Shown here piece by piece: positions 28,536-35,078 of a stretch of DNA of 64,000 nt. The first letter of the stretch is position 1. The number at the start of each line of letters is the position of its first letter. Position numbers and translations under genes: made by a program. The notes under the pieces were generated by a model. That model searched no databases. It worked only from the letters and a program-made list of their open reading frames with translations, and was not told the origin of the DNA. This DNA comes from a virus: IMG/VR virus record IMGVR_UViG_3300042924_005659. One strand, written 5' to 3'.

Positions 28536-28608
28536 GTACTTGCTTCCATACAAGTGATGTGAAAATTGCGTTATCTGGGAATGCGCAAACCCTCCCTGAT
28601 TGAGACAA

Positions 28609-28974
28609 TGGACCTGGGGGGAGTCGAACCCCCGTGCTGAATGACGTATTGAAAGAGCAACTACAAGCTTATCCCACAATTGCAGTTCGGATTTGCTCGA
28701 CCCCATGGGCAGGGTTTGCAGATCCTATCCGACTTCGATTCTCAACGGGGTTGGCTCGGAAGCCTCCACCGCCATACCCTGCTGGGTTTTATCCTGAGCG
28801 TCTAGCAGGAGTCCTGCTCAGGATTCCAAGTCAGGCCGCTGCGAGAGCGGGGGACTCAGAGGGGACGTACCATTCGTTGGCAGTCTTGATTTAGTCGACT
28901 TTTTACGGAGCCTTTCGACCAACTCCGGCTTGCTCTCTATCGCAACAATCACCAGTCGAAACCTGGTCAGGCCC
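28609..28974 (-). ncRNA. ssrA: tmRNA (transfer-messenger RNA), tag ANEWYVPSESPALAAA
   Basis: 5' GGGCCTGACCAGGTTTCGAC; 3' CACGGGGGTTCGACTCCCCCCAGGTCCA; acceptor stem with G3-U70 and A73; tag ORF at 28881-28831 ending ALAAA-stop; CCA not encoded. Confidence 0.92.
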
Positions 28975-34172: not shown

Positions 34173-34523
34173 TTAGCCTCTTATAGCGGTCTTGTCGCAT
34201 GCCGCAGATGCATGCAGACCGGCCGGACTATCTGGATAGCTGAGCTCGGCATCTCCAGACGCATTACCCTCAGGTTGATGTTCGCTTATGTAGAACTGAA
34301 TTCTAGCGAATCCCGGCACCAGGCTTTCGGCCTGCCGATCCACCACTTTGTAGGAGAGGTGCTTTTTCCCTGCCCAGCACTTCCACCGGTACGGTTCGGA
34401 TATATAGTACCTGTGTGCGGAGAACAGCTGCCTGAACTGCCACAAGGCCTCCTCCAAAGCCTGTTGTTCTGTATCGAACAGCACTGGCCAAACCCATACG
34501 CCCATCTTCAGTTGATACTTCAT
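34173..34523 (-). CDS. Hypothetical protein
   Basis: Start re-assigned to MKYQLKMG, directly after the tRNA. Confidence 0.45.
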   Translation of the reverse strand: MKYQLKMGVWVWPVLFDTEQQALEEALWQFRQLFSAHRYYISEPYRWKCWAGKKHLSYKVVDRQAESLVPGFARIQFYISEHQPEGNASGDAELSYPDSPAGLHASAACDKTAIRG

Positions 34524-34526
34524 GAA

Positions 34527-34624
34527 TGCACCCGGTGGGATTCGAACCCACATTATCCGGCTTATCTGGCCGGTGCTTTAACCTGATTATAAGGCAGGCT
34601 GCTTAACCATTTAGCTACGGGTGC
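34527..34624 (-). tRNA. Atypical tRNA-Ile with two anticodon-like arms (TAT and GAT), 98 nt
   Basis: GCACCCG/CGGGTGC-A acceptor; T-arm GTGGG-TTCGAAT-CCCAC; arms GCCTGC-CTTATAA-TCAGGT and CCGGC-CAGATAA-GCCGG. Confidence 0.75.
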
Positions 34625-34631
34625 TAAAAGA

Positions 34632-35078
34632 TTAGCTAGGCTGCGAGGCTATGAACTCGCATTGGACCTGATGTATTTGCTGCGCTAGATGCTCTAGCTG
34701 CTGCAATACATAGGTCCGAGTTCTGAAACGGTGTGCTCCGGACAACTTAATGTCCAGAGCTGCCTTGGGGTAGTAGTTGAAGCTGAAGCAACCCATGCCT
34801 GTACGATAGTCACAGCTATGGGCGCAGTCAAACCCCAACTCCCAATTTCCATCAACAAGACTTGGTTCGCTGTAGGTGATCCCCCCGTGGACCTCGAACA
34901 TGTACTCCAAGGTCTGCTCTTTATCGTGCTTGATCGTCTGGAAGAGCCCGTGGTCTGCAGGAACAGTGAGATATCCGCAGTAATGGCCGAATGCGTTGAA
35001 GCTGACTCTACCCAGATAGATCCACTCTCTGCCGGCTGGATCAGTGTGCGTCACGGCAAAGGTTGCAACCGTGCCCAT
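34632..35078 (-). CDS. Conserved phage hypothetical protein
   Basis: GHYCGY...HG...VHGGITYS...LGFDCAH motif. Confidence 0.65.
   Translation of the reverse strand: MGTVATFAVTHTDPAGREWIYLGRVSFNAFGHYCGYLTVPADHGLFQTIKHDKEQTLEYMFEVHGGITYSEPSLVDGNWELGFDCAHSCDYRTGMGCFSFNYYPKAALDIKLSGAHRFRTRTYVLQQLEHLAQQIHQVQCEFIASQPS

Follow-up and report, generated by a model that had tools for sequence, protein, structure and literature searches.

The window, by which we mean the whole stretch of 64,000 nt of viral DNA analyzed here (IMG/VR record IMGVR_UViG_3300042924_005659), contains on its minus strand, at 34624..34527, a two-armed tRNA-Ile gene of 98 nt, in which one anticodon-type arm shows UAU and the other GAU. 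This raises the question of whether such a gene is a genuine tRNA and, if so, which of its arms reads codons and what the other arm is for. An Rfam search aligned the gene to positions 1-71 of the tRNA model RF00005 with 59.2 bits (gathering score 29, E = 1.5e-10); the alignment needs an insert of 27 nt in the D loop and places the GAU arm as the anticodon arm. ARAGORN did not call the 98-nt gene when run on the window. The parts of the gene are listed below in the order of the RNA, together with their conservation in the family of related sequences described in the next section.

34618..34624, minus strand: 5' strand of the acceptor stem, GCACCCG (RNA 1-7), perfectly paired with 34528-34534; 7/7 pairs covary in the family
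34612..34615, minus strand: 5' strand of the D stem, GCUA (RNA 10-13), common to both alternative D stems; G10, C11 and U12 are invariant (98/98), and N13 covaries with both partner sites
34605..34611, minus strand: D loop AAUGGUU with A14, A15 and G18G19; U8 and A14 are conserved, and the purine of the Levitt pair covaries with the final base of the variable loop
34601..34604, minus strand: partner site 1, AAGC, pairing with GCU(A) in a putative cloverleaf that has the UAU arm as anticodon arm; covariation in the family, G10-C25 intact in the window copy
34581..34599, minus strand: arm 1, stem GCCUG/CAGGU plus a C.U mismatch, loop CUUAUAA at 34587-34593, UAU at 34591-34589; four stem pairs have about 50% double-change cells
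34575..34578, minus strand: partner site 2, AAGC, pairing with GCU(A) in a putative cloverleaf that has the GAU arm as anticodon arm; AGC is invariant, G10-C25 is kept in all but a few B-only forms, and 13:22' covaries
34557..34573, minus strand: arm 2, stem CCGGC/GCCGG, loop CAGAUAA at 34562-34568, GAU at 34566-34564, A in place of U33 at 34567; 5/5 pairs covary
34552..34556, minus strand: variable loop AUAAU, 5 nt, ending in the Levitt-pair pyrimidine; 4-6 nt in the family, the last base covarying with the D-loop purine
34535..34551, minus strand: T arm GUGGG-UUCGAAU-CCCAC; matches the Rfam consensus, 3/5 pairs covary
34527..34534, minus strand: 3' strand of the acceptor stem, CGGGUGC, and discriminator A73 (34527), followed by UUC without an encoded CCA; A73 is invariant in alignment A2

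The gene also has U8. Its first module can be written as AAGC-A-[GCCUG C CUUAUAA U CAGGU], with five good pairs and a C.U mismatch closing the 7-nt loop, and its second as AAGC-A-[CCGGC CAGAUAA GCCGG], after which the variable loop AUAAU follows. The earlier note had described one tRNA body with two anticodon modules, UAU and GAU, the latter with A33, and this anatomy is confirmed by the sequence, by Rfam and by the family; from the first-arm stem that it gave as GCCTGC, five pairs stand and the sixth is the C.U mismatch. With an acceptor/T geometry of 7/5, an extra loop of 7 nt and an Ile anticodon in each loop, the gene has neither the 8/4 or 9/3 geometry of allo-tRNAs and class II tRNAs nor a Leu, Ser or Tyr anticodon combined with a short-looped variable arm, and it differs also from a tRNA of ~72-95 nt with a single anticodon arm and no large insert. 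It shares with the two-armed family the loops CUUAUAA and CAGAUAA, in that order and on 5-bp stems, A73, and two partner sites for the D stem. While nearly all relatives encode CCA, the window copy does not.

The tRNA is squeezed between ORFs (34521-34632): the stop codon of ORF 34632-35078 lies 8 nt upstream, and an ATG (34523) starts 3 nt past the discriminator, so that maturation must cut a polycistronic mRNA right at the start codon. The adjoining ORFs encode small phage proteins of unassigned function and an exonuclease-like protein. The window's tRNA cluster also includes a tmRNA (28606-28974) and tRNAs for UUA, AAA, AGA, GGA and other codons; tmRNA genes were likewise seen within other phage tRNA arrays that hold a two-armed tRNA (L007:7817-8199 and L046:5489-5882). 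A megablast search of the 12 kb around the gene against the phage collection gave no match; the window phage therefore has no close cultured relative.

A family of two-armed tRNA genes and its carriers

The same architecture, for which the earlier note had proposed a search in related phages, was found many times. IMG/VR was scanned with patterns in which both loops, only loop 1 or only loop 2 were fixed, and bacterial genomes were scanned as well. Family members were defined by loop 1 Y-U-U-A-U-A-N and loop 2 Y-A-G-A-U-N-N, in that order and on 5-bp stems, and by A73. Together, the scans yielded at least 134 distinct two-armed sequences. These are 93-104 nt long, and almost all of them have A73 and encode CCA. 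In the design of the family, each module consists of A21, the 3' strand of the D stem, N26 and a hairpin (5 bp, loop of 7 nt), and arm 2 has exactly the geometry of an anticodon arm: one base, 5 bp, a 7-nt loop and then a variable loop of 4-6 nt. Of 63 scan candidates, 53 were missed by ARAGORN. Another type of D-loop insertion was seen in two phage contigs (L041 and L058, from IMG/VR 3300045988), where 108-nt tRNA-like genes with a normal acceptor stem, anticodon arm (loops CUUUUAA and UCAUAAU) and T arm have a D-loop insert of ~35 nt containing the hairpin GUAUC-UAUA-GAUAC.

We aligned 98 two-armed sequences (alignment A2). Covariation in this alignment extends to the acceptor stem, both arms and the T stem, with 730-748 double-change cells versus ~235 in shuffles; as many of the sequences are closely related, these represent few independent covariation events, about 4-5 per site. 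The observed count was reached by none of 500 shuffles, and slid controls collapsed. RNAalifold independently predicted the acceptor stem, arm 1, arm 2 and the T arm, and left the D stem open. In the main group, the D-loop purine and the last base of the variable loop, which form the Levitt pair, covary perfectly (A:U in 40, G:C in 21), indicating that the two-armed RNA folds as a real L-shaped tRNA.

One of the relatives is the 98-nt "tRNA-Ile" of the Pectobacterium phage PhiM1 (JX290549 25840-25937), whose genome was Sanger-sequenced. The two genes can be aligned over their full length and share both arms with identical loops, and the acceptor stem and both arms differ between them by compensatory changes; the PhiM1 gene further differs in that CCA is encoded and site 1 is degenerate (AAGA). 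The PhiM1 papers (PMC5377504, PMC6115819) and the GenBank record give just "tRNA-Ile", and the architecture is not mentioned in them. Literature on second or dual anticodon arms, on UAU combined with a variable arm in phages, and on U33 in phage tRNAs likewise contained no description of a two-armed family that we could find. Judged by its sequence and that of its relatives, the window gene is a genuine, functional-type member of an undescribed family of two-armed tRNA-Ile genes located on mobile elements.

Cultured carriers include phages of Pectobacterium, Vibrio, Klebsiella, Xanthomonas and Acinetobacter, in which the gene is mostly unannotated. Examples of unannotated genes in GenBank are those of Xoo-sp13 (MN047793.1 47565-47663; L322:3565-3663) and of OP617743 (68213-68298), PQ768830 (78536-78625) and MT448617 (78696-78785), which are records among KP13-26, Pylo and River4. 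All of the cultured phages infect Gammaproteobacteria, in agreement with an IleRS of the E. coli type in the hosts. A plain tRNA-Ile(tat) was found in a Streptomyces phage. In PhiM1, as in other small phages, the two-armed gene is the sole tRNA gene. The gene is also present on 38 Xanthomonas plasmids and on chromosomal islands, for instance in Stenotrophomonas. In a sample of 150 genomes of the bacterial family to which Stenotrophomonas belongs, 4-7 carry it, and the copies are 100% identical across species; this rarity combined with identity indicates that the two-armed gene is mobile cargo. TilS scored above the cut-off in all five carrier genomes tested, which means that the two-armed gene would be an extra AUA reader there, not a replacement. 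Four sequencing runs, one of them of raw RNA, gave no reads on the two-armed gene, and one RNA-seq contig ends 30 nt upstream of it; this weighs neither for nor against expression.

Some neighbors of these genes deserve mention in their own right. The Stenotrophomonas copy (L190:3397-7998) borders an island encoding KfrA, an OLD-family ATPase/TOPRIM nuclease and a UvrD-type helicase; the nuclease and the helicase form a Gabija-like defence pair, and the tRNA may mark the island or travel with it. Directly downstream of the two-armed gene in two loci (L022:3445-3520 and L183:7487-7562), one in a phage contig and one in an Actinobacillus genome, is a tRNA with an 8-nt anticodon loop, UUCUAAGC (ARAGORN "ctaa"), which could be a quadruplet or suppressor tRNA.

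Two partner sites for one D-stem strand

The 5' strand of the D stem (G10 C11 U12 N13) has a potential partner site ahead of each arm. At site 2, the pairs G10-C25, C11-G24 and U12-A23 are invariant in alignment A2, and they are kept in all but a few B-only forms. At site 1, C11-G24 is present in 97 and U12-A23 in 88 of the 98 aligned sequences; the closing pair of this site is a G.G or G.A mismatch in 98 of 124 sequences and G-C in 20, the window copy included. The fourth position covaries at both sites, the 13:22 pair of site 1 being UA in 36 sequences, AU in 20 and CG in 1, and the 13:22' pair of site 2 being U-A, C-G or G-C. Considered jointly, N13/N22/N22' are U/A/A in 41 of the 47 sequences with U13, C/G/G in all 11 with C13, and G/A/C in two. 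Within one lineage whose members are 88-92% identical, GCUC/GAGC/GAGC has changed to GCUU/AAGC/AAGC, and intermediates exist. The likeness of the two sites is not a remnant of a recent duplication, since the adjoining arms share no sequence.

The earlier note had also claimed that removal of an insert leaves a canonical tRNA-Ile(GAU), and ARAGORN indeed calls tRNA-Ile(gat) after deletion of a module. In the window gene, either module of 24-26 nt can be taken out, leaving a sequence of 72 or 74 nt that ARAGORN calls tRNA-Ile(gat) or tRNA-Ile(tat). When the same deletions were made in silico throughout the family, 131 of the 134 sequences without module 1 were called as tRNA-Ile(gat), and all 134 without module 2 as tRNA-Ile(tat). 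The two covarying partner sites, together with the outcome of both deletions, indicate that one RNA holds two mutually exclusive cloverleaves.

Nearest-neighbor energies, which barely credit either D stem and, like RNAalifold, do not decide between the two, place the folds only ~0.5 kcal/mol apart in the 99 sequences in which site 1 is mismatched, and favor the UAU fold by ~3.4 kcal/mol in the 31 with a perfect site 1, the window included. For the window copy itself, the UAU fold is favored by ~3 kcal/mol. The computed energies would fit tuning toward balance. The conservation of both D-stem pairings is moderately supported by the covariation data, and we give about even weight to the view that both folds are under selection.

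Three other interactions were considered and rejected. Kissing between UUAU of loop 1 and AUAA of loop 2 does not agree with the divergent loops AUUA, AUUG and AUGU, which break the match. A helix between GCCUUA of the D loop and UAAGGC of arm 2, present in the minimum free energy fold of some main-group members, shows no covariation when arm 2 changes, and a triple helix of site 1 on the site 2 duplex would require incompatible strand registers.

The probable decoding arm and the possible role of the second arm

Loop 1 always reads Y32-U33-U34-A35-U36-A37-N38, also among the matches listed in the scan that left this loop free, and this is the full signature of a ribosomal decoding loop with anticodon UAU (C32 U33 U34 A35 U36 A37 A38 in the window). 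Loop 2 always reads Y-A-G-A-U, usually followed by AA, and thus shows GAU with A33 in place of the universal U33; this also holds for the scan that left loop 2 free, and positions 37-38 differ from AA in three divergent forms. An A33 should weaken decoding, because U33 makes the U-turn of the anticodon loop. In addition, carriers rich in tRNA genes (13-41 tRNAs; L130, L137, L139, L113, L107, L095, L036, L046 and Xoo-sp13) have a separate, normal tRNA-Ile(GAU) with U33, and no plain tRNA-Ile(UAU) was found in them. In the long ORFs of the window, 32% of the Ile codons are AUA. AGA (31% for Arg), GGA (34% for Gly) and UUA are common as well, and tRNAs matching these three are present in the window. 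Finally, the UAU cloverleaf is the only one open to some relatives, namely to a form of 93 nt whose variable stem has 3 bp and to forms whose AGC is paired locally within an AGC-GAAA-GCU mini-hairpin. The loop signatures, the co-occurring normal tRNA-Ile(GAU), the AUA usage and the UAU-only relatives together make the UAU arm the likely decoder. The window gene is therefore quite probably a real AUA-reading tRNA, and we regard the GAU arm, by inference, as a conserved, non-decoding accessory. The suggestion in the earlier note of a switchable dual-decoding tRNA holds as far as the structure is concerned, since both D-stem sites are kept and covary, but not for dual decoding, given the lack of U33 in loop 2 and the separate normal tRNA-Ile(GAU).

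What might the GAU arm do? Beyond the anticodon loop, the Ile identity set of E. coli reportedly consists of A73, U12-A23, C4-G69 and C29-G41, as described by Nureki et al. in 1994. The family shows the Ile identity marks G34-A38 (in loop 2), A73 and U12-A23 as invariant features, from which charging by IleRS is only predicted; C4-G69 is present in the window gene and variable in the family, and C29-G41 is not kept. Loop 2 preserves exactly the anticodon-loop nucleotides used by the E. coli enzyme, i.e. G34, A35, U36, A37 and A38, apart from the three divergent forms that lack A37 and A38. According to PMC3575796, the identity set of E. coli IleRS includes G34, A35, U36, t6A37 and A38; tRNA-Ile(UAU) is poorly aminoacylated by this enzyme, in a t6A37-dependent manner, and a UAU anticodon on E. 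coli ribosomes fails to tell AUA from AUG. Loop 1 has C38 in 64 of 124 two-armed sequences, which breaks the 36-UAA-38 rule for t6A in the form given in PMC13276492.

The explanation that we favor overall, with slightly less than even confidence and on comparative sequence data, is a two-armed RNA in which the UAU arm decodes AUA, the GAU arm is a handle for IleRS, and a swap of the D stem gives two cloverleaves. The UAU arm would read AUA, a codon heavily used by the window phage, and the GAU arm would be the recognition handle by which the host IleRS accepts a tRNA whose decoding anticodon it handles poorly. The single D-stem 5' strand could pair with either site, thereby moving the handle into the anticodon position for charging: in one fold UAU would be placed for the ribosome, and in the other GAU for the synthetase. 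A33 may prevent AUC and AUU, which are abundant codons, from using up the GAU handle, and since both anticodons mean Ile, neither fold would miscode. Taken by itself, the proposed role of the GAU arm as an IleRS handle is tentative, and we doubt it more than we believe it. The most specific version, a naturally bistable tRNA that presents GAU to IleRS and UAU to the ribosome and so lets mobile elements read AUA without lysidine where IleRS handles UAU poorly, is a speculative and rather unlikely one.

Several observations count against the handle. A class I synthetase is not expected, from the IleRS-tRNA complex, to reach a loop in the variable region, and in the relatives limited to the UAU cloverleaf the GAU loop would have to act from exactly there. 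A handle is not generally required either, since phage contigs commonly have plain class I tRNA(UAU) genes, of which there are at least 102 distinct ones. A33 may serve another purpose, since it also occurs in ordinary phage tRNAs. At the examined loci, we observed ordinary 73-76-nt phage tRNA-Ile(GAU) genes with A33 (YAGAUAA; six distinct, in L145, L097, L142, L114, L100 and L079) and with C33 (CCGAUAA; five distinct, among them L046:14383-14457). Among the 1170 distinct tRNAs of these loci, a position 33 other than U is concentrated in tRNA-Ile(GAU), the A33 count being biased by the search pattern and the C33 count not. A33 and C33 in these ordinary tRNAs could point to evasion of a factor acting on that loop. 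The 245-kb phage contig L079, which has one of the A33 tRNA-Ile genes, also contains a tRNA with CUA (919-990; labelled Pyl by ARAGORN) of the amber-suppressor type.

The alternative that survives best, although we regard it as unlikely, is a fixed UAU cloverleaf with a long variable arm whose GAU-like loop serves a partner other than IleRS, for instance as an uncleavable nuclease bait, a modification-enzyme site or a ribosome stabilizer. The anticodon-nuclease decoy proposed in the earlier note belongs here and is still a candidate role for the GAU arm. Such a structure would agree with the relatives limited to the UAU cloverleaf, with the preference of the window copy for this fold, with the clustering of A33 and C33 in phage tRNA-Ile(GAU), which hints at pressure from a host factor on that loop, and with the proposal that changes in the anticodon loops of phage tRNAs evade nucleases (PMC10264068). 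It leaves unexplained, however, why site 2 is complementary to and covaries with the D-stem 5' strand, and why arm 2 has the exact geometry of an anticodon arm. The location of the gene on plasmids and islands also counts against it, and we know of no nuclease in phage defence that is specific for tRNA-Ile(GAU).

The reverse arrangement, a fixed GAU cloverleaf, would be a tRNA-Ile(GAU, A33) decoding AUC and AUU, in which the UAU-like hairpin is a D-loop insert acting as an accessory at the elbow. The placement of arm 2 as anticodon arm by Rfam, the better preservation of the site 2 pairs compared to the usual G.R mismatch at site 1, and the ordinary 73-nt phage tRNAs with a YAGAUAA loop speak for it; yet U33 and the complete decoding signature are located in loop 1, normal tRNA-Ile(GAU) genes co-occur, UAU-only relatives exist and A33 is expected to weaken decoding, and we consider this arrangement improbable. 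Still less probable is a true dual decoder whose folds alternate, reading AUA in one and AUC/AUU in the other, so that one gene covers the three Ile codons. Two complete cloverleaves with Ile anticodons are encoded, and in small phages such as PhiM1 the gene is the sole tRNA, but the A33 of loop 2 is invariant, the hosts are rich in tRNA-Ile(GAU), and tRNA-rich phages add a normal GAU tRNA.

Recoding of AUA by a long-armed tRNA charged with Leu or Ser, as in allo-tRNAs or nematode nev-tRNAs, is very improbable. A73 and the long extra arm would suit it, and allo-tRNAs with UAU exist (PMC5389517); the geometry, however, is 7/5 instead of 8/4 or 9/3, the anticodon in the extra loop is GAU, for Ile, U12-A23 and A73 agree with the Ile set, and recoding would be very costly with AUA at the frequency seen in the window. 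We see no more room for excision of one module from the transcript, leaving a tRNA of 72-74 nt, which the earlier note had raised as a processed insert. A canonical tRNA is left whichever module is removed, and in the window copy a direct repeat of 9-10 nt (GGUUAAGCA / GGUUAAAGCA) flanks the module unit. This repeat is absent from most relatives, though, and the insert of 25-27 nt shows no intron signature (group I, >200 nt, or bulge-helix-bulge), the Rfam search having reported no intron family in the region. Moreover, the design occurs in 43-kb podoviruses and other small phages encoding no RNA-repair enzymes, and on plasmids without a ligase, and both arms are under purifying selection with covariation. 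That the gene is a one-off duplication chimera, a pseudogene or an assembly artefact, the first and last of which the earlier note had considered, has nothing but the direct repeat in its favor and is refuted by the conserved, compensatory design of more than 130 sequences, including those of cultured phages, among them the Sanger-sequenced PhiM1, and of finished plasmids.

Relation to known tRNAs

None of the closest described systems has a second anticodon-type arm. Bacteria usually read AUA by means of a lysidine-containing tRNA-Ile2(CAU) made by TilS, of which T4 also provides an example. That route serves the same codon and the same synthetase as proposed for the two-armed tRNA, but it involves a modification enzyme, a CAU anticodon and a single arm. 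Nearer to the two-armed tRNA is the TilS-independent tRNA-Ile2(UAU) of Mycoplasma mobile, a plain class I cloverleaf for which IleRS itself has changed (Arg865; Taniguchi et al. 2013, PMC3575796). In both cases, a UAU of the unmodified type reads AUA, or in the two-armed tRNA would read it, instead of lysidine, and both face the problem that an E. coli-type IleRS handles UAU poorly. The synthetase has adapted in M. mobile, whereas the two-armed family has a second, GAU arm and 5/5 tested carriers keep TilS. The window gene thus has the UAU decoding loop of this class and departs, by its extra arm, from the plain cloverleaf; the hosts of the class lack TilS or have an adapted IleRS.

In its UAU fold, the two-armed RNA resembles the class II tRNAs for Leu, Ser and Tyr, the allo-tRNAs and the nev-tRNAs in having an extra arm in the variable region, the nematode nev-tRNA-Ile(UAU) being a long-variable-arm tRNA. 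The extra arm of the two-armed family differs from these in its 5 bp and 7-nt loop, its own copy of the D strand, the 4-6 nt on its 3' side, the 7/5 geometry and the Ile anticodon loop. Allo-tRNAs with UAU have 8/4 geometry (PMC5389517). The nuclease-evading phage tRNAs of van den Berg et al. (2023, PMC10264068) have altered anticodon-type loops comparable to the one with A33; the altered loop of the two-armed family is located on the second arm, and neither tRNA-Ile nor position 33 is mentioned in that paper.

The rule that a bacterial tRNA has a single cloverleaf and one anticodon arm is broken by the two-armed family in hundreds of phages, plasmids and islands. As gene finders mostly miss these tRNAs, the tRNA sets of phages and their capacity to decode AUA are undercounted. 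Cultured systems that carry the gene exist, such as PhiM1 in Pectobacterium, Xoo-sp13 in Xanthomonas and the Xanthomonas plasmids. If the two folds do interchange, the function of a tRNA would depend on a conformational switch. Should the second arm serve the synthetase as a handle, the two functions of the anticodon, identity and decoding, would be separated, and the family would represent a third natural answer to the AUA problem, beside lysidine or agmatidine and adapted synthetases, as well as a ready-made design for the engineering of orthogonal or rare-codon tRNAs.
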